From a bacterium (GTDB lineage: Bacteria; Patescibacteriota; Microgenomatia; Levybacterales; UBA12049): a stretch of 44,119 nt of DNA. The stretch's first letter is position 1; each line of letters starts with the position of its first letter. The stretch lies in assembly GCA_021784535.1 (NCBI GenBank), contig JAJYHW010000085.1, positions 1 through 44,119 of the forward strand, given 5' to 3'. Under the pieces are notes generated by a model that was not told the origin of the DNA, ran no database searches, and saw only the letters and a list, made by a program, of their open reading frames with translations. Both the position numbers and the translations under genes were made by a program. Positions 589 to 14,066 of this stretch are shown in pieces.

Positions 589-3054
589 ATGAAATTTGAT
601 GGTGTCAGAGAAAAAGTATTTTTAGACCGATATGCACTCAAAGGTGCTGAAGGAGAGCTCCTGGAGCACGCACCGCAGGAAATGTGGCAGCGGGTTGCGC
701 ATGGCATTTCTCTGCAGGAGAAGAAGTCTAAGCAAAAAAAATGGGAAAAAGAATTCTATCGGGTTCTGGAGGATTTCAAATTTGTTCCCGGAGGCCGGAT
801 CCTGTCAGGTGCGGGCACAGGGTATCAGGTAACGTATTTTAATTGTTTTGTTATTCCCAATCCCAAAGACTCCAGACATGGCATTCTTGAATCGCTTGGT
901 CAGCTCATTGAGATCCAGTCCCGCTCTGGCGGGGTTGGCTTGAATCTTTCATCTCTTCGACCGCGGGGCGCACGCGTCAAGAAGGTAAACGGCACTTCTT
1001 CAGGACCTGTTAACTGGGCAACGCTTTTTTCAGTCGCAACACATGATATTGTCCAGCAGGGTGGTTCCCGGCGCGGAGCGACGATGCTCATGCTGCATGA
1101 CTGGCATCCGGATGTTGAAGAATTTATTACGGTCAAGCAGGATCTTACCAAAATTAACGGCGCCAACCTTTCCGTGTGTGTTTCAGACGGTTTTATGGAA
1201 GCAGTTAAAAAAGATATGGATTGGGATTTGGTTTATCCTGATCTGAGCGATGCTCACTATGATGCAGAATGGGATGGAGACATCAATGAGTGGCGTGAGA
1301 AAGGGTATAAAGTTAAAATATACAAAACTGTCAAAGCCAAAGAATTATGGGATCTCATTTGCACGGCAGCCTGGCGTTCTGCGGAGCCCGGCTTACACTT
1401 TTTAGAACGCTCCAATAAGAGATCTAACACCTGGTATTTTGAAAAACTCCTTGCTACCAATCCTTGCGGTGAACAGCCGCTCGGCGGGTGGGCTGTGTGT
1501 AATTTGGGCGCGATGAATTTGGCTGCCTACGTCAAGGATGATAACCTTACGCAGGACAAAGCAGGCTGGTTTGATTACGAGGCGTTTGGTAAAGACGTTC
1601 AGGTGGCGATGCGTTTTTTGGATAACGTTATTGATGACACCTACTATTTCTTTAAAGAAAATGAGCAAGTTGCAAAAGAAATCCGTCGGACAGGTCTTGG
1701 TATTATGGGAATTGCGGATACCTTTATCAAGATGAAGATTCGTTACGGTTCGGAAGAGTCTGAGAAGGTTGCAAAGAAAATTTTCAAAACGCTTCGTGAC
1801 AATGCCTATATTGCCTCCTCGGATATCGCGAAAGAAAAAGGCGCGTTTATAAAATTTGATAAAGACAAATATCTTAAAGGCTATCATATTAAAGCATTGC
1901 CAAAAGAAATTCGCGAGAAGATCGCAGAACAAGGCATTCGTAATGCTGTCCTTTTGACTATTGCTCCGACAGGGACAACAAGTCTTTTGGCTGGTGTTTC
2001 AAGCGGTGTTGAGCCGGTGTATGAATTCGAATACTCTCACAATGGTCGTCTTGGCAAACAAATGGTCTATCACGGATTGTACGGCGAATGGAGAGATGCG
2101 CATCCTGACGTTGATCGACCTGATTATTTTGTCGGGGCAAATGATTTGACGCCTGATGATCACGTGAGGATTCAGGCAATTGCTCAAGAATATATTGACT
2201 CTTCGATCTCAAAAACGGTGAATGCGCCCAATTCGCATACGGTTGAAGACGTAAAAAAATTATATATGTCCGCGTATGATAACGGGCTCAAAGGTGTCAC
2301 GTACTTCCGTGATGGTTCGCGCATGGGCGTTCTCCAGCGGGAGGAGAAAAAAGACGCTTCGGCAAGCTCAATGCAAGAGAAAGCTCCTGAACAAGCGCCG
2401 GCAGTTGTTCAAAAGCCGATGATCCCTGTGACATCACGTGTACCTCGTCCGATGGTATTAACAGGTGTAACCTATAAAGCAGAGAGTCCGACAGGGAAAT
2501 TGTATGTGACGATCAATAATGATGAAAAGGGAGATATCTTTGAAGTCTTTATCAATCACGGGAAAAGCGGATCTGATTTGATGGCGCTTGCGGACGCGCT
2601 CGGCCGGATGATTTCATTTGTCCTTAGAATCCATAGTCCGGTTCCTGCCCGGGAGCGGGTCCGTGAAATTGTGTCAGAACTTGCGGGTATTGGTGGGAGT
2701 CGCAGTAGCGGTTTTGGTGAGAATAGAGTCAGATCTCTGCCTGATGCTATTTCAAAAGTCCTTGCGCGGCATGCTGAATTTCGTGTTAACGGTAAGGTTG
2801 AAGACAGTGTCCAATACCTGGCGAGGATGAGCAATGATTATAGTGCTAGCAATGGTCATATCAAGACAGCAGTAGATCTGCCTGAAGAAGCGCCTGTGCC
2901 AAATCAGTTGGCATTACCTGAAACCGGCATCTCATCTGTAAGCAGCAGCGTGTCAACGTCACTGTTTGATATCTGTCCGGAATGCGGATCGGGAAGCTTT
3001 GCTTATGAAGAGGGCTGCAAGAAATGCTATGCATGTGGATATAGCGAATGCTAG
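589..3054 (+). CDS. nrdJ: Class II adenosylcobalamin-dependent ribonucleotide reductase
   Basis: 821 aa. RNR core motifs are present (NCFV, SRSGGVGLNLSSLRPRG, NPCGEQPL, TIAPTGTTS). C-terminal CPECG...CKKCYACG zinc ribbon is typical of NrdJ. Confidence 0.93.
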   Translation: MKFDGVREKVFLDRYALKGAEGELLEHAPQEMWQRVAHGISLQEKKSKQKKWEKEFYRVLEDFKFVPGGRILSGAGTGYQVTYFNCFVIPNPKDSRHGILESLGQLIEIQSRSGGVGLNLSSLRPRGARVKKVNGTSSGPVNWATLFSVATHDIVQQGGSRRGATMLMLHDWHPDVEEFITVKQDLTKINGANLSVCVSDGFMEAVKKDMDWDLVYPDLSDAHYDAEWDGDINEWREKGYKVKIYKTVKAKELWDLICTAAWRSAEPGLHFLERSNKRSNTWYFEKLLATNPCGEQPLGGWAVCNLGAMNLAAYVKDDNLTQDKAGWFDYEAFGKDVQVAMRFLDNVIDDTYYFFKENEQVAKEIRRTGLGIMGIADTFIKMKIRYGSEESEKVAKKIFKTLRDNAYIASSDIAKEKGAFIKFDKDKYLKGYHIKALPKEIREKIAEQGIRNAVLLTIAPTGTTSLLAGVSSGVEPVYEFEYSHNGRLGKQMVYHGLYGEWRDAHPDVDRPDYFVGANDLTPDDHVRIQAIAQEYIDSSISKTVNAPNSHTVEDVKKLYMSAYDNGLKGVTYFRDGSRMGVLQREEKKDASASSMQEKAPEQAPAVVQKPMIPVTSRVPRPMVLTGVTYKAESPTGKLYVTINNDEKGDIFEVFINHGKSGSDLMALADALGRMISFVLRIHSPVPARERVREIVSELAGIGGSRSSGFGENRVRSLPDAISKVLARHAEFRVNGKVEDSVQYLARMSNDYSASNGHIKTAVDLPEEAPVPNQLALPETGISSVSSSVSTSLFDICPECGSGSFAYEEGCKKCYACGYSEC

Positions 3055-3099: not shown

Positions 3100-3239
3100 G
3101 GACCGATTTTACAATTGAAGATGGAAATCACGGTGAAAATCCGTGGCTGTGCCGCAACTGTAAAGCCAGAAAACTTTTTTTCCCGCGCAGGAGCTTTTTT
3201 TAAGAATCCTTCTGTTTTGCGGAGCAAGAGAAGGATTTT
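3100..3239 (+). promoter_or_regulatory. Cobalamin (AdoCbl-type) riboswitch RS1, short form without a long P6 extension
   Basis: GGAAAT, then a 5-bp stem CACGG/CCGTG (3129-3145) closing a TGAAAAT loop, then GCTGTGCCGCAACTGTAAAGCCAGA. This matches the conserved GGUGAnAAUCC...GCxGxxCCGCAACUGUAA core and B12-box region. Downstream, a 9-bp hairpin (3205-3213 / 3229-3237) buries the GAAGGA Shine-Dalgarno of the ATG at 3240. Confidence 0.75.
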
Positions 3240-3599
3240 ATGAATAAAAAAGTACTCGCCATAGTCATCATTATCATTATTTTTGCTCTTTCAGCGCTTG
3301 GCGTTAGTGAGATTAAGACATTCTCCCATTCTATCCCCAATCCAACAGCTACTCCTGTCTCACAACAGACTACACTTGTGTACAAAGGCATTAATGGAAA
3401 AGATGCTTTAACGCTTCTTAAAGAACATGCGGCTGTCGAACAGGATCATTCAGGATTGGTCATTGGTATCAATGGTAACAAGCCGACAGGGCATCATTAT
3501 TGGGCGTTTTATGTTAATGGCAAGATGAGCCAGGTGGGACCGGCTGAGTATCAGACAAAAAACAGCGATATAATCGAGTGGAAAATAGAGAAATATTAA
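3240..3599 (+). CDS. DUF4430-like secreted or anchored protein (transcobalamin beta-domain-like, probable B12 binder)
   Basis: N-terminal signal/TM segment (VLAIVIIIIIFALSALG). The C-terminal pattern HYWAFYVNG...GPAEY...DIIEWK is typical of DUF4430. It is the first gene after RS1. Confidence 0.7.
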   Translation: MNKKVLAIVIIIIIFALSALGVSEIKTFSHSIPNPTATPVSQQTTLVYKGINGKDALTLLKEHAAVEQDHSGLVIGINGNKPTGHHYWAFYVNGKMSQVGPAEYQTKNSDIIEWKIEKY

Positions 3600-3616
3600 A
3601 AAGTTTAAAGTTCAAA

Positions 3617-4186
3617 ATGAAAAATTCAAAATTACAAATAAAAGTGCAAAATATTATTAGTCCTTTTATAATCATTGCGTTTGCAATTATTTTGAGGTTG
3701 GTCCCGCACCCTCCTAACGTTGCGCCGATTGCAGCAATGGCACTTTTCGGCGGCGTGTACCTCAATAAAAAATACGCACTTATTGTCCCGATTATTGCTC
3801 TGTTTGTTTCAGATATCTTTTTGGGATTTTATTCTGAAATGATATTTGTTTATGGCAGTTTTCTTCTTACCGGATTGATAGGTCTCTGGCTTCGAAATCA
3901 TAAATCCTTCAGAAATGTCATTCTGGCAAGTAGTGGTTCTTCTATCATGTTTTTCCTTATCACCAATTTTGGTGTGTGGCTTATGAGTTCAATGTATGAT
4001 AAAACATTCAATGGCTTGCTGGAATCGTACGCGATGGGGTTACCGTTTTTTAGAAATACGCTGCTTGGAGATCTTGGATACGTCGGATTATTCTTCGGGA
4101 GCTACGAGCTCTTGTCATTATTTATCTTAAATCGTAAAACGCAAATATCAAAACTACATCTCAAATCTAAACATTTTAAGATTTGA
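3617..4186 (+). CDS. Six-TM membrane protein, ECF S-component-like; probable cobalamin transporter subunit
   Basis: About 6 hydrophobic helices. The RLVPHPPNVAPIAAMALFGG motif resembles solitary S-component/DUF6580-type proteins. The ATG at 3617 was chosen over 3578, which overlaps the upstream gene by 22 nt. The function is inferred from operon context only. Confidence 0.6.
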   Translation: MKNSKLQIKVQNIISPFIIIAFAIILRLVPHPPNVAPIAAMALFGGVYLNKKYALIVPIIALFVSDIFLGFYSEMIFVYGSFLLTGLIGLWLRNHKSFRNVILASSGSSIMFFLITNFGVWLMSSMYDKTFNGLLESYAMGLPFFRNTLLGDLGYVGLFFGSYELLSLFILNRKTQISKLHLKSKHFKI

Positions 4187-4223
4187 ATTGTCGGTTTATG
4201 ATTTGAATTTTGAGTTTTGAGAT
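4158..4223. repeat. Heptamer-built imperfect hairpin element
   Basis: Left arm ATCTCAAATCTAAACATT (4158-4175) pairs with AATTTTGAGTTTTGAGAT (4206-4223) at about 14 of 18 positions. The arms are phased 7-mers (GAATTTT/GAGTTTT/GAGATTC). The left arm encodes the last residues of the upstream ORF. Confidence 0.55.
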
Positions 4224-4229
4224 TCTACT

Positions 4230-4769
4230 ATGCCGATTTATACCCGTACTGGCGATAAAGGGAAAACGTCACTTTTTGACGGCACCCGTGTGTTGAAATC
4301 ACACAAGCGCGTTGAGACATATGGAACAATTGATGAGCTTAATAGTATTATTGGTGCTACCGTTGCCCATTTGAAAAATAATGAGAAGCAATTGAAAGTT
4401 GAATTGGAAAAGATTCAAAATGATCTTTTGGATATCGGCTCAGCGCTTGCAACGCCTCATCCGATGCCGGTTATTGGTTTGGAAAATCGTCCAAAAGAGT
4501 TTGAGAAATGTATTGATAATCTCACGCAAAAATTGCCGGAATTAAATGAATTTATTTTACCCGGTGGTGGCAAAGCAGGCTCATTCTTGCATGTCTGCCG
4601 AACGATTGCCAGGCGAGCTGAGCGGCAGCTGGTTGCATTGACACAGAAAGAAAAAGTAGATGAGGCAATTGTTATTTATCTCAATCGCTTGTCAGATCTG
4701 TTATTTACTATGGCGCGATATGTGAATTATATGGAGAAGAAGAAAGAGATTAAGTGGGTAAAGCGATAG
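4230..4769 (+). CDS. pduO: PduO-type ATP:cob(I)alamin adenosyltransferase
   Basis: N-terminus MPIYTRTGDKGKTSLFDG...ETYGTIDELNS and the later RRAER segment are characteristic of PduO-type ATR. 179 aa. Confidence 0.9.
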   Translation: MPIYTRTGDKGKTSLFDGTRVLKSHKRVETYGTIDELNSIIGATVAHLKNNEKQLKVELEKIQNDLLDIGSALATPHPMPVIGLENRPKEFEKCIDNLTQKLPELNEFILPGGGKAGSFLHVCRTIARRAERQLVALTQKEKVDEAIVIYLNRLSDLLFTMARYVNYMEKKKEIKWVKR

Positions 4770-4847
4770 ATGTAAGATGTAGGATTTAAGATGTAGACGT
4801 GAAATATAAAAAATCTTCTTAAATCTTACATCATAAATCTTAAATCT
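4770..4847. repeat. Heptamer-built hairpin element (ATGTAAG family)
   Basis: Left arm ATGTAAG ATGTAGG ATTTAAG ATGTAGA; right arm TAAATCT TACATCA TAAATCT TAAATCT. Positions 4776-4791 pair with 4817-4832 (16 bp including one G-T). It starts 1 nt after the pduO stop. Confidence 0.7.
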
Positions 4848-4854
4848 AATATTT

Positions 4855-4989
4855 TGGGTGAACTTAGTGAAATTCTAAGGCTGTGCCGCAACTGTAAAGC
4901 CAGATCCCCATCCCGATTAATTCGGGGAAAAACCTTCCGAGCAGAAGTTCCTTTTTTTGTGGACTCCTCGGATGACGAGGAGTTTTTTT
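4855..4989 (+). promoter_or_regulatory. Cobalamin riboswitch-like element RS2 with terminator / anti-SD expression platform
   Basis: GGGTGAA, then a 5-bp stem CTTAG/CTAAG (4863-4879) closing a TGAAATT loop, then a 26-nt core (4879-4904) identical to RS1 3145-3170. Downstream is an 8-bp hairpin ACTCCTCG/CGAGGAGT (4963-4983) followed by a T7 run. The 3' arm carries GAGGAG 7 nt before the ATG at 4990. Confidence 0.6.
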
Positions 4990-6687
4990 ATGGCAAGATT
5001 AGAATTTGCACCAACACCAACACCAAGATCAAGAATAGGCAGGCAAGTAGGCAATGCAGAAGTATCACCGGTAATCCAGCCGAGAAGACTTGCTGTTTCG
5101 GAGCTTATACAGCAAGGTGTGTCTCAAGCTATTGGAAATATTGATGCCGTACTTGCGGAGTTTGCAGAGAATCAAAGAGAAAATCAGAAGAAGCCTAGCA
5201 TGCCTGAATCAGTATCTGTGTATAATCCATCCAAGCGTAGTCAGACAGAGTTTCTTAACCAGAGAATGCCTGTTTCTGTTTTTGAACAATCATCACAGGA
5301 AGATTGCATACGTGCAAAAGAAAGACTTTCTCCGACAAGTAGTACGCGGGAGTATATAGATTTTTTTGATAGATTTTATGAAGAGGAAGGTCTTCCAAAG
5401 GATTGGTACAAACTTCAGTATGGAGACGCTCAGGTAGGGTTCAGTATGAAAAAACAAATGGAACGTTTGAGAGATGACTCTTTTGCAGGAAGAAAGATAT
5501 GGGCTCGGCAAGCATTTGGCGATTTACAGGGATATCTGATTGAATATGTTTCTCCCTATAATGTTTTCCCCTGGACGCATGTTGTGAGGGAAACTTCTGA
5601 TGGAACAGCACATCTGGTTGATCCAAAATATGGAGGTAGACGTATGATTGATTTAGTCACAAATGACGAAAGAGATGGAGCTGTCACCTCTGTAATGAAA
5701 GCAATAGATCAGGCCGTTGTGACAGGGAAAAAGCCTGATGGGAGTGCGTTGTCTAATGGAAGTATGTTTTTGGAAGTAAGTCCTTCGGATGCTTCAGCAA
5801 CAGGTTTGAAACAGGACAATGGTAAGGATATTAAGTATAAAGATACACATATTAAAATATCTCAAGTGGTAGGAGATAAATTAGTAGGATTTACCATACA
5901 AACAGATTTCACCAAGACAGAATGCCGTGAGCTGCTCTATAGAGTTTCCGGGAAAATGCTCCCAGAGGATGCGCCAGTTGAAGATTATATAAGATCATTT
6001 GCTATTATTGATCCTACCGCAAGTGATCTGAAAAGCATTGGAGATATGGTCGGAGTTGCTGCCAAGGTCCGTTCGGATATGTCTTTTGGATCAAAAAATG
6101 CGTATAAAGATAAAACATGGGATCAAGTCCTTGAACAGATAAGCCGAGGGGATACATTATATGAATGGACGAAGACATCCCAGGCTATCCTGAAAAAGTT
6201 TGTATACGATGTGCTTTATGATAATCCGTCGAAAGATGAATTACCTCGCTATCTGTCAGCGACTATTCTAACTGCAGTTCAGGCAGCGCAGATGGATCAA
6301 TTGGCTGTGGCAGCTGAGAAGGCAGCTACAGAACAGCTTCATCTTATACTCCCACCATCCAATTTTGGTAATTTTGGAGAAGTTTTGAAGGCTACTGCCG
6401 CAATTGTCGGATGCGCAGGCGGAGGATCAGCATCTTCAGATGGTGGAATATTTGGAAGAAATCGTTCAGGACAAGTCGGAGGATTAACTGGTGAATCATG
6501 CCCTCAAATATCATGTGCCTGCGGCTGGGAGGCGAGTGATGCTGAAGTTGCATCAATTCAAGCAAAAATGCTCACACATTGTCCGAAATGTGGTGCAGAA
6601 CCTGGGAAAGGAGAAGCAAGGGGAAAGAGGGAAAAAGAAGAGGTACAGACGCCAATAGATAAGAAAAAGTTTGCATTAGCAGCATAA
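4990..6687 (+). CDS. Hypothetical 565-aa protein with C-terminal CxC...CPxCG zinc ribbon; no family recognised
   Basis: Long clean ORF. The ATG at 4990 was chosen because the TTG at 4957 lies inside the terminator hairpin. No signal peptide, TM segment or P-loop. C-terminus is CACGWEASDAEVASIQAKMLTHCPKCGAEPG. Confidence 0.7.
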   Translation: MARLEFAPTPTPRSRIGRQVGNAEVSPVIQPRRLAVSELIQQGVSQAIGNIDAVLAEFAENQRENQKKPSMPESVSVYNPSKRSQTEFLNQRMPVSVFEQSSQEDCIRAKERLSPTSSTREYIDFFDRFYEEEGLPKDWYKLQYGDAQVGFSMKKQMERLRDDSFAGRKIWARQAFGDLQGYLIEYVSPYNVFPWTHVVRETSDGTAHLVDPKYGGRRMIDLVTNDERDGAVTSVMKAIDQAVVTGKKPDGSALSNGSMFLEVSPSDASATGLKQDNGKDIKYKDTHIKISQVVGDKLVGFTIQTDFTKTECRELLYRVSGKMLPEDAPVEDYIRSFAIIDPTASDLKSIGDMVGVAAKVRSDMSFGSKNAYKDKTWDQVLEQISRGDTLYEWTKTSQAILKKFVYDVLYDNPSKDELPRYLSATILTAVQAAQMDQLAVAAEKAATEQLHLILPPSNFGNFGEVLKATAAIVGCAGGGSASSDGGIFGRNRSGQVGGLTGESCPQISCACGWEASDAEVASIQAKMLTHCPKCGAEPGKGEARGKREKEEVQTPIDKKKFALAA

Positions 6688-6692
6688 AAATT

Positions 6693-6842
6693 ATGAAGAA
6701 AGAAAAGGATTGTGAAATTTGCTACAGGATCCTCTGTAAGCGGTGCGGTTGGGTCGCTTCTGAGGATGATGTCATAAAAATACAAAAAGGTGAAATAACT
6801 GCATGTCCTGAGTGTGGATGGAAACCGGGCGACACTGTTTGA
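6693..6842 (+). CDS. 49-aa zinc-ribbon micro-protein (absent from the ORF track)
   Basis: MKKEKDCEICYRILCKRCGWVASEDDVIKIQKGEITACPECGWKPGDTV. It starts 5 nt after the upstream stop. A 29-aa gapless stretch is 15/29 identical to the C-terminus of the preceding protein. Confidence 0.6.
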   Translation: MKKEKDCEICYRILCKRCGWVASEDDVIKIQKGEITACPECGWKPGDTV

Positions 6843-6877
6843 TTGTTTGCATAGGTTTAACATGGTAAGATAGGAGT

Positions 6878-7588
6878 ATGGATCCAAGCATTCCTGCTGT
6901 CCAAGACACGCAAAATCAACAACCAGCGAATCAGCCGGTAAACCAGGTGCAGCCGCCTGTGACAGCAGCGCCTCCGGTACAGCAGCAGAAGACGCAGGTG
7001 TCTGTCGGCAATGTAGAAGCCGGAGCTGCTACAATGATTCAGGAAAATTCGGATGCTGATGCAGATGATGATGAGGATGAAATAAAGATTGCCCCGCAGG
7101 AAATAACAAATCAGACGGCAAATAAAAGCGCTGGAGTTGATACTCAGGAAGAAGATGTCAAACTTCAGTCAACAATTCCTGAGATAGTAGTCAGCAGTCC
7201 TGAAGTTGAAACGATTATCGAAGCGTCAGTGGATCAGGACAAGCCGGAGCTTTCAAAGGAAGTGAAGGCCGCGGGAGTGACTCATTCCGGTCCGGGAGTG
7301 ATTGTTGTTGAGCAGAGCAGTTCCGGAGTGCAAAAAATGCCTCCGATCACGTATGAACAGGCAAAAGTGGAAGAAAAAAAGACACAGCTGCATGAGGCAA
7401 GACACTGGTATCTCGCGCTGGTATTGTATCTCTGGCAGAAAATAAATCCAAAAGCCGGAGAAAAAGATAGGCAGGATGGCCAAAAGGATGCTATTCTAAC
7501 TGATCAAGCACCAACATTGTCAGCTGGGGAGCATAATAGCATAGAACAGTCTGAAGAGGTGCAAAATGAAGCGCCATCGAGGGGATAA
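6878..7588 (+). CDS. Hypothetical acidic, Q/P-rich (probably disordered) protein with one C-terminal hydrophobic helix
   Basis: 236 aa with a low-complexity N-terminal half (QNQQPANQPVNQVQPP..., DADADDDEDE) and the segment HWYLALVLYLWQKI. Its stop is 3 nt before the next gene. Confidence 0.6.
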   Translation: MDPSIPAVQDTQNQQPANQPVNQVQPPVTAAPPVQQQKTQVSVGNVEAGAATMIQENSDADADDDEDEIKIAPQEITNQTANKSAGVDTQEEDVKLQSTIPEIVVSSPEVETIIEASVDQDKPELSKEVKAAGVTHSGPGVIVVEQSSSGVQKMPPITYEQAKVEEKKTQLHEARHWYLALVLYLWQKINPKAGEKDRQDGQKDAILTDQAPTLSAGEHNSIEQSEEVQNEAPSRG

Positions 7589-7591
7589 GAT

Positions 7592-9973
7592 ATGCAATTG
7601 CAAGCAATAACAACACAAAATATATTGAGTATTTTATTATCATTTTTCCTTATTATTGCAGGGATAGCAATTGTTGTTGCTGCTGGTTGGGGACTATTTT
7701 ATATTTTTGTTCTCTGGCTTCGGTATCGGGATCGTGAATCAATATCATTGAATTCTGTCCTGCTGCAGGTAACCGTGCCGCGGGAAAATGAAACAAAAAT
7801 TGATGTAGCAGAGCAGCTTTTTGAGAGCCTTTATGCACTCTATGGATCAACAAAATTTGAATATTTTAGACCGCAGCCGCATCTCTCTTTTGAAATTGTG
7901 GGATTGCCGGGAGATATCCGGTTTTATGTCAATGTCCCCGCGAAATACCGTGATTTTGTTGAAAAAGAGATTAACGGAGCCTATCCTGAAGCAGATATCT
8001 TACCGGTCAATGATCCTGCTGCCAAACAGCGCGACGGGGCGGTTATCGGAACTGAATACAATATCTTTTCTGACAACGGGAAGGTTGCCTTTATGTGGCT
8101 CAATCTGAAAAAAGCGAATTATTTACCCATAAAAGTGTATAAAGATTTACCTGTTGATCCACTCTCTTCTCTTACCTCGATTCTGGGAAAAATGCGTGAA
8201 GGCGAAGGCGCGGCGATTCAAATACTCATACAACCTGCCGGGAATAGCTGGAAAAAAGTAGGCCGCAGTTATATCGGAAGTGTTAAGAAGAATGAGTCAA
8301 ATCCGGAAAAAGCGAGTTATAAAGCTGACGCGAAAGAATTGGAGCAAATAGAGAACAAGCTGCAAAAAGCAGGATTTTATACCACAATTCGCGTGGTTGT
8401 TTGCGCTCAAACGCAAGAAGCGGCAAACGCGCATTTGAATAATATCAAGGGTGCATTTCATCAATTCAATAGCTTGAATGCTTTTAAAAAGCGCTGGCAA
8501 TTTTTTAGAGGATTATTCATGACTGATTTTATTTACCGTTATTTTCCGTTGGTCAGAGAGACGTCAATTCTTACGTCTGATGAACTGGCAACAATTTATC
8601 ATTTCCCCAATAAAAGCATTTTAACGCCGGGCATCCACTGGCTTCATGCCAAGCGCTCTGCTGCTCCTTCCAATCTCGCGACGACAGGACTCTATCTGGG
8701 AAGAAGTACGTTTCGCGGTCTTGCCCGGTCTGTTTTTGTTGAGCGTGACGACAGGCGGCGACACATGTACATTATCGGAAAGACTGGTACTGGTAAAACT
8801 GAATTTCTCAAAAGCATGATTATTCAGGATATCAATAATGGTGAGGGAGTTGCGGTTATTGATCCTCATGGAGATCTGGTAGAAGATATTTTGAAAATGA
8901 TCCCGCCCAAACGGGCTGAAGATGTGGTTCTTTTTGATCCGTCTGATTATGATCGCCCGATGGGATTTAATATGCTGGAAGCAGATACAGAGCAGCAAAA
9001 ACATTTCGCTGTCAATTCATTGATCGGTCTTATGTATAAATTGTTTGATCCGAACAAGACCGGTATTGTGGGGCCGCGCTTTGAACACGCAGTCCGTAAT
9101 GCCATGCTGACTGTTATGTACGAAAAAGGAAGTACCTTGATTGAGGTGATGCGCGTATTGACTGATCCGGCATATGTGCAGGAAGTTTTGCCAAAGGTGC
9201 AGGATCCGATTATTCGGCGATACTGGACTGATCAGATTGCTCAGACGTCAGATTTTCATAAATCCGAGGTACTTGATTATATTACTTCTAAGTTTGGCAG
9301 GTTTGTCACTAACAAAATGATCAGAAATATTATTGGGCAGTCTGACAGCGCGTTTAATTTCCGCAAAGTGATGGATGATCAAAAAATTCTGTTGATCAAT
9401 CTTTCAAAAGGTACGATTGGCGAGGAAAATTCAAATTTTTTGGGTCTGGTTCTGGTGCCAAAGATTCTCGTCGCTGCCATGTCGCGTCAGGATATGCCGA
9501 TGGATCAGCGAAAAGATTTCTTTTTATATGTTGATGAGTTTCAGAATTTTGCAACACCTGATTTTGCGCAGATTCTCTCTGAGGCTCGAAAGTATCGGCT
9601 CAATCTGATTGTTGCCAACCAGTTTATCGGACAGATGGAGGAAGAGATCAAAAATGCTATTTTTGGAAACGTAGGCACGGTTGCCTCTTTCCGAGTCGGA
9701 GTGACTGATGCAAATTATCTTGCCCATGAATTTCAGCCGATTTTTAACGAACAGGATTTAATCAATGTGGATAAGTTTAATTGCTATATGCGTACACTTG
9801 TTAGCGGAGAGCCAGTACGGCCCTTCTCTCTTGATACAACAAAAGATATTACCAGAGAAAAAGCTATGGAGAATCTGCGTGTCGCTGAGCTTGTAAAGGA
9901 ATTATCGCGGCTTAAATACGGAAAATCAGTTGCCACTGTTGAAGCAGAGATTGCTCAACGAGCAAGACTGTAA
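7592..9973 (+). CDS. TM-anchored P-loop ATPase of the TraD/TraG/VirD4 coupling-protein / HerA-FtsK-like type
   Basis: 793 aa with an N-terminal TM hairpin (ILSILLSFFLIIAGIAIVVAAGWGLFYIFVLWL). Walker A is IIGKTGTGKT and Walker B is FFLYVDEFQNF. The C-terminal LIVANQ...GNVGT segment is typical of the TraG-D_C region. Confidence 0.75.
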   Translation: MQLQAITTQNILSILLSFFLIIAGIAIVVAAGWGLFYIFVLWLRYRDRESISLNSVLLQVTVPRENETKIDVAEQLFESLYALYGSTKFEYFRPQPHLSFEIVGLPGDIRFYVNVPAKYRDFVEKEINGAYPEADILPVNDPAAKQRDGAVIGTEYNIFSDNGKVAFMWLNLKKANYLPIKVYKDLPVDPLSSLTSILGKMREGEGAAIQILIQPAGNSWKKVGRSYIGSVKKNESNPEKASYKADAKELEQIENKLQKAGFYTTIRVVVCAQTQEAANAHLNNIKGAFHQFNSLNAFKKRWQFFRGLFMTDFIYRYFPLVRETSILTSDELATIYHFPNKSILTPGIHWLHAKRSAAPSNLATTGLYLGRSTFRGLARSVFVERDDRRRHMYIIGKTGTGKTEFLKSMIIQDINNGEGVAVIDPHGDLVEDILKMIPPKRAEDVVLFDPSDYDRPMGFNMLEADTEQQKHFAVNSLIGLMYKLFDPNKTGIVGPRFEHAVRNAMLTVMYEKGSTLIEVMRVLTDPAYVQEVLPKVQDPIIRRYWTDQIAQTSDFHKSEVLDYITSKFGRFVTNKMIRNIIGQSDSAFNFRKVMDDQKILLINLSKGTIGEENSNFLGLVLVPKILVAAMSRQDMPMDQRKDFFLYVDEFQNFATPDFAQILSEARKYRLNLIVANQFIGQMEEEIKNAIFGNVGTVASFRVGVTDANYLAHEFQPIFNEQDLINVDKFNCYMRTLVSGEPVRPFSLDTTKDITREKAMENLRVAELVKELSRLKYGKSVATVEAEIAQRARL

Positions 9974-9981
9974 ATGCTCAT

Positions 9982-10215
9982 TCAATAGATATTCATTAGG
10001 AGGAAGAGGGTAATAAGAAATGCGGTAAATAGTGCTAAGGAAATGCTTATTTTTACCATACCTTTGAGATACTCAGGCGCCTGCAGTCCTATCTCTCTTG
10101 TCGCGTGCACAGTCCTAGTAAGATACAGCCAGCTAAAAAATACAATGATTGCTATACTCATCAGATAGCAAAGAAGGACAAGCATTTTTATATGAGTAAG
10201 CGTCAGCAACAACAT
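9982..10215 (-). CDS. Small two-TM membrane protein, hypothetical
   Basis: 77 aa with two hydrophobic helices. It lies 17 nt downstream of, and co-directional with, the 10233-10829 gene. Confidence 0.45.
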   Translation of the reverse strand: MLLLTLTHIKMLVLLCYLMSIAIIVFFSWLYLTRTVHATREIGLQAPEYLKGMVKISISLALFTAFLITLFLLMNIY

Positions 10216-10232
10216 AATTATTCCTTTCGTAT

Positions 10233-10829
10233 TTATCCGGCGCTATTGGCATTATGATGCCTGAACCAGATAGTATTTTGGATTATTTCAGCATGTGTCC
10301 CGTCCATGAGTTGCTGTGTCAGATAGGTTGCCAGCTCATGCGGAGCGCGCACGTCTTTAATAACAAATTCTTCCTGATGCGTAGGCCGGTCAAAGGTGAG
10401 AAGAACATCTCCAATGTCAAGTATTTCATTGATAATACCATTAGTCCTCATATCAATTTCAGTACAATTGACTCTATCCAGCATGACGTCATTGGCGACA
10501 TAAGAGGCGAGCGGCGTATAGCGGAGTTCAATGATTTTACGATTTGTCAATATATACATATGAAAATACCAGTCAATAAGTATTTTGGTAACCAAACTAA
10601 TTCCGATGCTTAAAAGAAGCATTGCCGTAACAAGAAGTAATGACTGAGAAACAAAAAAATCCTGAAAAAATATAAGTGCGATGGAGATAAGTAGAACAGT
10701 CAATAAGCAGGCCAAAAAAACAGGTATAATAATCACAAAAGGGTGTTGTCGCTTTACAAGAAGTAACCGTTCATCCTTAAGTGTCAGGAAAATATTCCAG
10801 TTTCCCCTAGTTATCATGCCATTTTGCAT
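10233..10829 (-). CDS. Membrane protein, hypothetical (two TM segments plus a soluble C-terminal domain)
   Basis: The ATG at 10829 was chosen because it is preceded by AAAGGAG at a 5-nt spacing. The TTG at 10859 has no such signal. Confidence 0.6.
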   Translation of the reverse strand: MQNGMITRGNWNIFLTLKDERLLLVKRQHPFVIIIPVFLACLLTVLLISIALIFFQDFFVSQSLLLVTAMLLLSIGISLVTKILIDWYFHMYILTNRKIIELRYTPLASYVANDVMLDRVNCTEIDMRTNGIINEILDIGDVLLTFDRPTHQEEFVIKDVRAPHELATYLTQQLMDGTHAEIIQNTIWFRHHNANSAG

Positions 10830-12956: not shown

Positions 12957-13025
12957 TGAGTCATTATACAAGAAAAATTTCTTCGTTGCTTTGCTGAGGC
13001 ATAAAAACATGTTACAATACTTGTT

Positions 13026-14066
13026 ATGAACAAGAAGCGAGTATTATCAGGAATACGTGCAACAGGGAGATTACATCTCGGGAATTATTTTGGTGCAATA
13101 AAAGGAATGCTTACGCTGCAGGATGATCCCGAATTCGAAACTTTATATATGGTCGCGGACTTGCATACATTGACGACACCGTACCAAGTAGAAGAACTTC
13201 GTCAAAACCGTCGTGAGATTATCATTGATTATTTGGCAGCAGGTCTTGATCCTGAAAAAAGTATTTTATTCCAACAATCAGCAAATCCTCATCATGCAGA
13301 ATTCGCTTTTTATCTTTCAAGTGTCGTGACAATCGCTAAAATGCAGCATCTGCCGACGTTTAAAGATAAAGTAAAGCAATATCCGCAATATGTGACAATG
13401 GCACTATTAAATTATCCTGTTCTCATGGCAGCGGATATTCTTATTTATAAAGCATCTGATGTGCCGGTTGGGATTGATCAGGAGCCGCATTTGGAAGTCG
13501 CACGTGAAATAGCACGACGTATGAATCAGGATTATGGAACTGATTTTCCTGAACCGCAAATCTTTAAGACGATAGGTGAATATGTATCTTCTCTTACAGG
13601 TGAGGGGAAAATGAGTAAGTCGGTTGAGGGGAGTTATATCAACTTGACTGATGATTTGGAGACGATTAGGAAAAAAATTGCGAAGATTCCAACAGATTCG
13701 GGTAAGGGTATTATAGATAAAGGAGTTTATATCTCGCGATCAGCTATGCCTAATAATGGAGTAGTTGCAATTGCTCCTTCTAATGGTGTTAAAAATTTAA
13801 TGGAGTTTATAGAGTTATTTAAAGGAAAAGAAAGAAGGAAAGAGCTTGATAACCAATATCAGGATGTTGGATTGCGATATAGTGAAGTTAAAAATGAATT
13901 AGCGGAAGCAATTTATCAGGAATTGCAACCAATTCAGGAAAAACGACAAGAATTGGAAAATAATCCTCAAAAAGTTGATAGTATTATCTCAGTAGGAAAT
14001 GAAAAAGCGACGGTGCTTGCATCAGAGGTCGTAAAAGAAGTTAGAGAAAAAATGGGACTTTTGTAA
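13026..14066 (+). CDS. trpS: Tryptophan--tRNA ligase
   Basis: GRLHLGNYFGAIK (HIGH-type motif), KMSKS, and a class Ic layout. 346 aa. Confidence 0.92.
   Translation: MNKKRVLSGIRATGRLHLGNYFGAIKGMLTLQDDPEFETLYMVADLHTLTTPYQVEELRQNRREIIIDYLAAGLDPEKSILFQQSANPHHAEFAFYLSSVVTIAKMQHLPTFKDKVKQYPQYVTMALLNYPVLMAADILIYKASDVPVGIDQEPHLEVAREIARRMNQDYGTDFPEPQIFKTIGEYVSSLTGEGKMSKSVEGSYINLTDDLETIRKKIAKIPTDSGKGIIDKGVYISRSAMPNNGVVAIAPSNGVKNLMEFIELFKGKERRKELDNQYQDVGLRYSEVKNELAEAIYQELQPIQEKRQELENNPQKVDSIISVGNEKATVLASEVVKEVREKMGLL

Follow-up and report, generated by a model that had tools for sequence, protein, structure and literature searches.

This report concerns a cobalamin (B12) riboswitch, RS2, and the four open reading frames behind it (ORF1 to ORF4), located on positions 1 to 44,119 of contig JAJYHW010000085.1 (assembly GCA_021784535.1), a 44-kb stretch of Levybacterales DNA hereafter called the window. 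We consider that RS2 is probably a class-II-type cobalamin OFF switch acting on ORF1 and ORF2, which would constitute a new cobalamin-handling module, and that ORF3 and ORF4 form a separate unit. The observations that carry this reading are the identity of the riboswitch together with its conservation and covariation, the linkage of the ORF1 family (hereafter X) to B12 genes, and an independent promoter motif in front of ORF3. The genes are arranged in the order NrdR, a DUF6941 gene, NrdJ, a first riboswitch (RS1), DUF4430-DUF6580-PduO, RS2, ORF1, ORF2, ORF3 and ORF4. The RNA can be placed in a known riboswitch class; the family of its cargo appears to be new.

The whole window was scanned with cmscan against all 4227 Rfam families at the gathering threshold, and exactly two matches were obtained, RS1 and RS2, both to RF01689. 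This model, AdoCbl-II (AdoCbl, adenosylcobalamin), corresponds to the class-II cobalamin riboswitch, formerly the 'AdoCbl-variant'. RS2 (4843..4918, forward strand) scored 41.1 bits over the full model (1-81), above the gathering threshold of 36.5 bits (E 1.5e-6), so that the second cobalamin riboswitch claimed in an earlier note on this DNA is borne out. Its helices are P1 (TGGG/CCCA), P5 (CTTAG/CTAAG), a small helix (TGT/GCA) and P6 (CTG/CAG), and its conserved core is GGCTGTGCCGCAACTGTAAAGCCAGA. Two details given in the same note also hold. The 26-nt identity between 3145-3170 in RS1 and 4879-4904 in RS2 is exact and ends at both edges, and the 5-bp stem is kept by compensatory changes (CACGG/CCGTG in RS1, CTTAG/CTAAG in RS2) around the loops TGAAAAT and TGAAATT, respectively.

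To place RS2 among its relatives, loci were sampled with ORF4 as the anchor, a choice that avoids selecting on ORF1; taking one locus per species, 185,579 genomes yielded 63 loci. An alignment of 21 distinct orthologous RS2 leaders, one for each species (A4), was evaluated under a six-helix model, using shuffles and slid partners as controls. Standard pairs occupied 96.3% of the cells, compared to 39-51% in the slid controls, and 42 cells were changed on both sides, versus 11.5 in the shuffles, none of which reached 42 in 500 trials. Among these leaders, P5 covaries at four of its five pairs, the G-C pair of the small helix is replaced by A-U in four sequences, and a U-A pair of P6 becomes C-G in one. 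The B12-box-type core GCCGCAACTGT is either invariant or carries one compensated change in all leaders, whether of RS2 type or RS1 type.

The element that the earlier note had described in front of this operon is also seen 5' of orthologues in relatives, where it lies directly upstream of every close ORF1 homologue found. The leaders of these close homologues are recognised by different models: L007 and L014 match RF01689 (38.5 and 37.9 bits), L011 matches RF01482 (45.8 bits), and L013 and the trio L008, L009 and L010 match RF00174 (29.2 and 24 bits, respectively). The lower-scoring leaders are copies with a P6 extension, and orthologous copies alternate between forms with and without it. Given that this extension is present or absent among orthologous RS2 copies, ligand selectivity, for adenosylcobalamin as opposed to methylcobalamin or hydroxocobalamin (HyCbl), may differ among species. 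Even the most distant members of the family that could be placed, P0125 and P0094 (about 21-22% identity), have RF01689 matches directly upstream. Two tandem cobalamin aptamers were observed right after NrdJ in L051 (2200-2482), with an RS1-type core at 2233 and an RS2-type core at 2375.

RS2 might be nothing but a decaying duplicate of RS1 that has no regulatory role, a view that could draw on the identical 26-nt core and on an Rfam score just 4.6 bits over the threshold. RS2-type leaders, however, make up a conserved lineage of their own, found in at least 21 species, in which P5, the small helix and P6 have undergone compensatory changes; their expression platform is conserved, covarying and distinct from that of RS1; and some RS2 orthologues bearing the P6 extension score on RF01482 or RF00174 instead. 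We regard this explanation as effectively refuted by the comparative data and give it virtually no chance. Since orthologous genes of no fewer than 21 further species have this leader in front of them, its aptamer helices preserved by compensatory changes, RS2 is, on this comparative evidence, functional and not decayed: an old, maintained regulatory element.

The region between the aptamer and the start codon is organised in several hairpins. A variable one (4912..4926, forward strand; CCCGA-TTAAT-TCGGG; alignments A2 and A4) lies between the aptamer and a hairpin resembling P13; it is present in most relatives and missing in some, and its stems are complementary wherever they differ in sequence (GTCCC/GGGAC, GTTCCC/GGGAAC, ATCCGC/GCGGAT). 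The P13-like hairpin itself (4934..4947, forward strand; CTTC-CGAGCA-GAAG) is nearly invariant in the 21 leaders, and in L011 it is aligned, with its loop CGAGCA, to the 3' regulatory hairpin of the RF01482 model. A further covarying hairpin separates it from the last element, an intrinsic terminator that is also a sequestor of the Shine-Dalgarno sequence (4963..4989, forward strand), with an 8-bp stem ACTCCTCG/CGAGGAGT, the loop GATGA and a T7 run at 4983-4989. In the terminator scan it was called at 4961-4985, with 5 G-C pairs among a total of 10. Its 3' arm contains GAGGAG, which includes the GGAG Shine-Dalgarno motif, and the T7 run abuts the ATG at 4990. Pairing in this helix reaches 97.6% across the 21 leaders. 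The scan, the hairpin sequence and the conserved pairing all agree with the earlier description of the platform as a terminator and a sequestering element combined.

Moreover, the terminator carries in its 5' arm the sequence CTCGGA, to which the 5' half of the P13-like hairpin, CTTCCGAG, is complementary. At the RNA level, CUUCCGAG can pair with CUCGGA(AG), covering the terminator 5' arm and loop; pairing in this alternative helix amounts to 89.8% across species, and three of its pairs have changed on both sides. It is the minimum free energy structure of the nascent RNA up to position 4975 (-11.8 kcal/mol), whereas the terminator (-13.9 kcal/mol alone, -15.9 kcal/mol with P13) is favoured once its 3' arm exists. 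The 5' half of P13 can thus be predicted to act as an antiterminator and anti-sequestor. Since the antiterminator wins in the nascent RNA and the terminator in the full leader, the layout is the one expected of a kinetically controlled OFF switch.

We propose the following mechanism. Without cobalamin, nascent CUUCCGAG would pair with CUCGGA of the downstream 5' arm; this antiterminator pairing would keep the terminator (8 bp plus U7) from forming and GGAG from being buried, and the genes would be ON. In cobalamin riboswitches, ligand binding stabilises a loop-loop contact with the regulatory hairpin. By analogy, the cobalamin-bound aptamer of RS2 would hold P13 through such a contact and withdraw the antiterminator strand; with P13 held, the terminator and sequestor would form right before the ATG at 4990, and the genes would be OFF.

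In its architecture RS2 resembles class-II cobalamin riboswitches, of which the env8 HyCbl riboswitch, reportedly described by Johnson et al. in 2012, is an example. It is likewise small, without the large P6 extension, with a core GCCGCAACUG...AGCCAG and a P5 with a 7-nt loop, and it also has a short hairpin after the aptamer, with the loop CGAGCA. Unlike the textbook class-II element, its regulatory hairpin does not contain the ribosome-binding site and competes instead with a downstream terminator/sequestor; in addition it has a covarying hairpin and a separate terminator and Shine-Dalgarno sequestor, whose U-tract touches the start codon. A DNA pattern built from the platform alone, CTTCCGAGCAGAAG-N5-35-CTCCTCGG, was found in 64 metagenome contigs, approximately 55 of which have the aptamer core upstream, and PduO comes directly before wherever sequence exists.

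The gene that RS2 directly precedes, ORF1 (4990..6687, forward strand; 565 aa), has no Pfam, NCBIfam or PADLOC match. When 88 family members were compared with Pfam, just scattered weak zinc-ribbon matches were obtained, and a profile search of PDB sequences gave a best E of 0.34. Five close homologues, at 57-65% identity, were found among 5.8 billion protein clusters. A profile made from the six close sequences then retrieved 217 clusters at 50% identity among 1.84 billion representatives, 73 of them at E<=1e-30; when the 88-sequence family alignment was used in a word-indexed homologue search, no sequence beyond the six known close relatives was recovered. The earlier note had called ORF1 an orphan of 565 aa, which stands inasmuch as no characterised family is matched and does not stand as regards a singleton, given the approximately 217 clusters. 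Among named relatives, the closest carry the labels Levybacteria or Levyibacteriota, of the Microgenomates group within the candidate phyla radiation (CPR), and from the distribution of its members the X family is specific to Levybacteria-type genomes.

The link between leader and protein is tight. Fifty-seven of the 61 proteins directly behind RS2-type leaders fall in one cluster and have in common E185, R228, S264-P265, Y283, C475 and the Cys residues of a C-terminal ribbon; a model built from these 57 proteins matches every gene at the ORF1 position (E 1e-45 to 1e-112). In ORF1, residues 1 to ~95 are disordered and residues ~100-445 form an alpha/beta plus helical core. These are followed by the invariant C475 in an AIVGCAGGG loop (many members have a PGCAGGG-like loop), a flexible linker and a Cys4 ribbon (C504, C509/C511, C531, C534), and the protein ends in ...FALAA. 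The AlphaFold2 model obtained with the 88-sequence alignment has a mean predicted local distance difference test (pLDDT) score of 81.7, exceeding 94 for residues ~100-445; an earlier model from a 6-sequence alignment had reached 59. Foldseek searches with the better model gave a best E of 0.066 in the PDB, with template modelling (TM) scores of at most 0.15, and a best E of 0.064 among viral models. According to this model, ORF1 would represent a previously undescribed family with a confidently predicted fold and without a solved analogue. A reading of ORF1 as a tetrapyrrole-binding GAF protein was discarded: the Foldseek matches to phytochrome PAS-GAF domains had a probability <0.3 and were non-significant, also with the good model. 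No signal peptide, transmembrane or hydrophobic segment was predicted in ORF1, which is by prediction cytoplasmic.

Two further observations concern the ends and the integrity of X proteins. ORF1 (window 6673-6687) and the members P0003, P0004, P0005, P0019 and P0040 end in ...ALAA or ...LAA, similar to the ssrA degradation tag, and other members have a Cys within their last three residues. In L014 (1218-2932) the ORF1 homologue is split into an N-terminal ORF of 167 aa and the 394-aa P0006, with one riboswitch for both; this may be either a frameshift, an assembly error or a genuine split.

Genomic context ties X to cobalamin. Every member with visible context sits in a locus with NrdJ, DUF4430-DUF6580 and PduO, and each one examined has either a riboswitch of its own or a position fused behind PduO. 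The ORF4-anchored sample includes 28 species loci with PduO, in which X stands behind its own RS2-type leader (16 loci), directly behind PduO (4 loci) or is not found there (8 loci). X starts 1 nt past PduO in L146 and abuts or overlaps it in L037 and L074; in L051 the two tandem aptamers precede it and it is flanked by NrdJ and DUF6580, the latter followed by PduO, an order unlike that of the window. In L031 and L043, which lack X, no cobalamin riboswitch was found at Rfam thresholds. This linkage provides strong guilt by association with cobalamin use. Genes behind cobalamin riboswitches have been a repeated source of new B12 transporters and processing enzymes, and an unknown gene behind a second riboswitch in a B12 cluster is a classic predictor of such proteins. 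Compared with known riboswitch-controlled B12 regulons (btuB/btuFCD, ECF-CbrT, BtuM, BtuG; PduO), the locus shares a consumer, a binder, a membrane component and an adenosyltransferase; ORF1 differs from their proteins in having no sequence or fold similarity to them, in its predicted cytoplasmic location, in its Cys4 ribbon and in its far faster evolution.

ORF2 (6693..6842, forward strand; 49 aa) begins 5 nt past ORF1 and is kept after ORF1 homologues. It has six Cys (CEIC..CKRCGW..CPECGW) and gives weak Zn_ribbon_9/3 matches, in line, at the superfamily level, with the zinc ribbon that had been proposed for it. From its sequence, ORF2 is homologous to the C-terminal ribbon of ORF1-type members (including P0010), and this fusion and fission of the ribbon domain argues that ORF1 and ORF2 act together. 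ORF2 and the C-terminus of ORF1 share with the tail of class II ribonucleotide reductase and with rubredoxin knuckles the arrangement CxxCGW...CPxCG(W), and many X members, like the NrdJ tail, end in a further Cys. Compared to rubredoxin, the knuckle spacing in ORF1 and ORF2 is shorter, and generic zinc-ribbon models are matched weakly and the rubredoxin model is not. Two X members weakly match the rubredoxin-like domain of rubrerythrin (E 0.013).

As to what the two proteins do, we put forward, as a tentative idea somewhat short of an even chance, that ORF1, with its own Cys4 ribbon and the free-standing ORF2, would handle cobalamin in the cytoplasm and be produced under B12 scarcity. The hypothesis draws on four observations: X is coupled to PduO, its invariant Cys stands on a flexible loop, its knuckles are rubredoxin-like, and its Cys-rich tail is similar to that of NrdJ. 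ORF1 might reduce scavenged corrinoids or strip their upper ligand, Cys475 on its flexible Gly-rich loop serving as the reactive residue, and PduO would then adenosylate the product for NrdJ. To our knowledge, CPR bacteria are unable to make B12 and many need it for their only ribonucleotide reductase. The X family is a specific candidate for how these bacteria might capture, activate and deliver a cofactor with few genes. A role as corrinoid reductase, dealkylase or chaperone, if proven, would define a new enzyme class in B12 salvage, and the hypervariability of the family would then call for an explanation. The earlier suggestion of a new machine for B12 acquisition or trafficking is accordingly reasonable as a new B12-linked function of ORF1 and ORF2, and does not extend to the ATPase encoded by ORF4.

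The coupling to PduO also bears on another idea, that ORF1 is a B12-independent substitute providing an alternative deoxyribonucleotide route when NrdJ lacks its cofactor, comparable to metE or to nrdAB/nrdDG. B12-independent isozymes are often repressed by cobalamin riboswitches, NrdJ is the sole B12-dependent enzyme seen in the locus, and the Cys-rich ribbon tail of X, often with a terminal Cys, formally resembles that of NrdJ. However, the confident model is unlike the ribonucleotide reductase/pyruvate formate-lyase barrel or nucleotide-salvage enzymes, there is a single conserved Cys outside the ribbon, and some relatives have NrdJ without X. The translational coupling to PduO in L146, L037 and L074 fits the use of B12 and not its avoidance. 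We hold such a substitute to be highly improbable.

The remaining two genes were assigned to the same operon in the earlier note, which described four genes behind RS2 with gaps of 5, 35 and 3 nt. The gaps are confirmed, and the genes lie on one strand; the four-gene operon as such is not supported, in view of a promoter belonging to ORF3, of inserted genes and of ORF3-ORF4 pairs without the leader. This promoter (6843..6871, forward strand), of sigma70 type, consists of a -35 element TTGTTT (6843-6848) that begins right after the ORF2 stop, a 17-nt spacer and an extended -10 element TGgTAAGAT (6863-6871, hexamer 6866-6871), and the ATG of ORF3 follows 6 nt past the -10. In 19 species the motif reads ATTGCC/TTGTTT (TTGcct)-17-TGnTAAGAT, then 6-7 nt and ATGGAT, whatever gene lies upstream; TG, TA..AT and ATGGA are invariant. 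The 6-nt spacing implies that the predicted ORF3-ORF4 mRNA is leaderless or near-leaderless. Two features are documented here: this conserved leaderless-type promoter in Levybacteria and an expression platform unlike that of textbook class-II riboswitches. A second promoter of the same type was observed in the window at 13010 (within 12991-13028; TTGCTG-17-TGtTACAAT), 7 nt before the ATG at 13026 of a tRNA-synt_1b gene, which suggests that leaderless mRNAs may be common in this organism.

ORF3 (6878..7588, forward strand; 236 aa) encodes a protein that is acidic, as had been noted (the pI is 4.4), and of low complexity, with a conserved C-terminal amphipathic segment and no family matches; PADLOC found nothing for ORF1-3. 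ORF4 (7592..9973, forward strand; 793 aa) is a membrane-anchored ATPase of the VirD4/TrwB/HerA/FtsK superfamily. It has a hydrophobic transmembrane segment (residues 3-45), an N-terminal DUF8128 region before the ATPase (precomputed Pfam annotation) and weak matches to TrwB_AAD_bind PF10412 (36.7 bits), T4SS-DNA_transf PF02534 (35.8), DUF87 (35.3) and TraG-D_C (25.2), so that its description as a membrane-anchored TraD/VirD4-like ATPase is right at the level of the superfamily. With the type IV coupling proteins TrwB/VirD4/TraD/DotL it shares the N-terminal membrane anchor and P-loop ATPase; TrwB_AAD_bind, T4SS-DNA_transf and TraG-D_C are above gathering, and the best PDB matches are TrwB and DotL. 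It differs in that the similarity to PDB entries is confined to ~50 residues at the Walker A motif (TrwB: 381-432), in that it falls 200-750 bits short of the NCBIfam equivalogs (at best 53.8 versus 250 for the CD1115 family and 53.1 versus 366 for SXT TraD), and in the large DUF8128 region preceding the ATPase. Moreover, its gene is conserved on CPR chromosomes next to one for an acidic protein, and is split in two in Paceibacteria. Neither a relaxase, VirB4 nor another type IV secretion gene was found among the large ORFs of the window or the precomputed contig annotations.

Throughout the Microgenomates, ORF4 homologues have an ORF3-like gene immediately in front of them, also at loci where B12 genes are missing, and both other CPR lineages and other Microgenomates have the ORF3-ORF4 pair without NrdJ, PduO or riboswitch. 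In many relatives one to three unrelated genes separate ORF2 from ORF3; L031 and L043, where X and the riboswitch are missing, retain PduO-(ORF2)-ORF3-ORF4; and in L051 the ORF1 homologue is away from the ATPase. Because ORF3-ORF4 have their own promoter, occur without B12 genes, are set apart by inserted genes and are retained without X, we treat them as a separate, widely conserved CPR pair, which B12 would affect at most via read-through, and ORF4 is probably outside the B12 regulon. The attractive link between B12 sensing and a secretion-type ATPase, raised in the earlier note as B12 control of a translocation ATPase, has to be corrected as unsupported. A core motif in L040 (7596) that might have been a riboswitch before ORF3-ORF4 was rejected as a chance match with one mismatch inside the ORF3 coding region, with no Rfam match.

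Some side observations concern this pair. In several relatives a small gene pair lies between ORF2 (or PduO) and ORF3 (L007:3922-4592, L028:6618-7270), encoding a ~100-aa protein with a hydrophobic C-terminal half and a ~110-aa protein starting MQQ(S/N)Y(R/K)D. In Paceibacteria the ORF4 homologue has no ORF3-like gene and is split in two, as in L058, L062 and L067 (about 7840-10660), with a DUF8128-type gene (~400 aa) and an ATPase gene (~515 aa); this split pair is downstream of two membrane genes that are SecD/SecF-like by length and position only.

Several points weigh against RS2 being an OFF switch for a cobalamin-handling module separate from ORF3-ORF4. Sequence divergence in X is far more rapid than in the adjoining genes and does not run parallel to theirs: between L090 and the window ORF4 is 92% and PduO 79% identical and X is essentially undetectable, whereas in L008 ORF4 is 75% and X 60% identical. 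A housekeeping enzyme would be less expected to show such a pattern than a conflict or surface protein. Foldseek and PDB comparisons revealed no similarity between ORF1 and solved B12-binding or B12-processing proteins, and the ribbons of ORF2 and X match zinc-ribbon models and not the Pfam rubredoxin model. The scan predicted no terminator in the 35-nt gap between ORF2 and ORF3, so that transcripts released by RS2 may run on into ORF3-ORF4 and confer some B12 dependence on them. Almost all loci, the distant L143, L144 and L146 among them, keep X next to ORF3 and ORF4, which could reflect function and not clade synteny alone. Finally, it should be noted that the switching direction, the binding of a ligand and its form, the loop-loop pairs, the transcription starts and the role of ORF1 and ORF2 are what we infer.

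Compared with the flanking genes X has diverged to an extreme degree and in disagreement with phylogeny, which leads to the question of whether ORF1 could be a hypervariable conflict or stress factor (toxin-like, antiviral or growth-arresting), for which B12 scarcity is merely the induction signal. The dispensability of X in several species and the ssrA-like ..ALAA tails of a subset, which would suggest an enforced rapid turnover, point in the same direction. Yet invariant polar residues (E, R, S, Y, C) in all subtypes suggest one conserved chemistry, and X occurs only at the NrdJ/PduO locus in every member examined, in one copy per locus and with no adjacent immunity-like partner besides ORF2. 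With no PADLOC match either, a conflict factor seems very unlikely to us.

The adjacency of the genes can also be explained by supposing that RS2 gates the four genes as a single B12-starvation machine, in which the VirD4-like ATPase would move ORF1, corrinoids or DNA and deoxynucleotides across the envelope. Consistent with this, the genes lie on one strand with the gaps given above and no predicted terminator between ORF2 and ORF3, X is followed by the ORF3-like and ATPase genes in nearly all loci, again including L143, L144 and L146, and X, with its disordered N-terminal ~100 residues and conserved C-terminal tail, evolves like an exposed or interacting protein. The evidence for a separate ORF3-ORF4 unit stands against it: the promoter immediately before ORF3 in 19 species with any gene upstream, the pair without B12 genes in other Microgenomates, the Paceibacteria ORF4 homologue without ORF3, the separation of ORF2 from ORF3, in many relatives, by one to three unrelated genes, PduO-(ORF2)-ORF3-ORF4 without X or riboswitch in L031 and L043, and X between NrdJ and DUF6580 in L051. 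Furthermore, no other secretion-system gene was found in the 44-kb window, and ORF1 has no predicted signal peptide or transmembrane segment. We judge this machine unlikely.

A more speculative version, which we hold to be a long shot, would make ORF1 a hypervariable B12-starvation effector that works with the membrane ATPase and is exported or used at the surface to extract corrinoids or deoxynucleotides/DNA from a host. Riboswitch read-through would then add to the expression of ORF3-ORF4 on top of their own promoter, and deoxynucleotides or DNA from the host would be a B12-independent source of deoxynucleoside triphosphates. If true, this would be a new kind of vitamin-piracy apparatus in episymbiotic CPR bacteria.

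The separate-unit reading of RS2 with ORF1 and ORF2 is set in a conventional B12 neighbourhood. NrdJ (589..3054, forward strand), the adenosylcobalamin-dependent ribonucleotide reductase, is the B12 consumer of the locus, as identified by TIGR02504 NrdJ_Z (575 bits, cutoff 400) and Pfam Ribonuc_red_lgC (408 bits). Read from the sequence, it terminates in a Cys-rich zinc-ribbon tail (2970-3054; CPECG...CKKCYACGYSEC), which many ORF1-family C-termini, CPxC...CxxC...C, formally resemble. RS1 (3123..3174, forward strand; RF01689, 39.4 bits, gathering threshold 36.5) follows, and its platform (3175-3239) contains a Shine-Dalgarno-sequestering hairpin AATCCTTCT...AGAAGGATT, then the ATG at 3240. RS1-type leaders also occur in relatives and have the switch logic of RS2 in other sequences (CCCGAGCAGGAG ... 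AATCCTTCT/AGAAGGATT). The salvage operon behind RS1 (3240..4769, forward strand) has three genes with Pfam or NCBIfam matches: a DUF4430 protein (3240-3599; PF14478, 42.7 bits), a domain known too from transcobalamin-type binders; a DUF6580 membrane protein (3617-4186; PF20221, 181 bits), whose best PDB match, 6fnp chain A, is non-significant (E 0.28); and a PduO-type cobalamin adenosyltransferase (4230-4769; PF01923, 206 bits; TIGR00636, 200 bits), all on the forward strand. From these matches and its leader, RS1 evidently controls an ordinary B12 uptake and activation operon adjoining the B12-dependent reductase.

Between the PduO stop and RS2 (window 4769-4840) lies a long AT-rich imperfect palindrome, GATGTAAGAT...ATCTTACATC and ATTTAAGA...TCTTAAAT, which could be a transcript-end or stabilising hairpin of the PduO operon; L013 has a comparable element. 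No sigma70-like promoter could be assigned to RS2 itself in 4770-4850. Given that in several relatives the aptamer begins ~12 nt past the PduO stop, RS2 may be an internal attenuator of the PduO transcript.

A literature search on DUF6580/DUF4430/DUF8128, on cobalamin riboswitches of Patescibacteria, and on cobalamin and ribonucleotide reductase in CPR bacteria found nothing on this system. Many metagenome-assembled genomes with a Levybacteria-type locus were deposited as uncultured Gammaproteobacteria, Sulfotelmatobacter, Acidiferrales, Lysobacterales or Limnocylindrales, names that are probably placeholder or mis-binned labels. Lastly, a divergently transcribed pair encoding a Prenyltrans/SQHop_cyclase-like protein and a DUF4430 protein was observed in L142 (3687-5776) and L144 (3316-5644), and may be a split transcobalamin-like binder. 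In L142 the pair has an RF01482 riboswitch of its own (55.1 bits); this lies on the strand opposite to, and back to back with, the one that precedes the ORF1-family gene.

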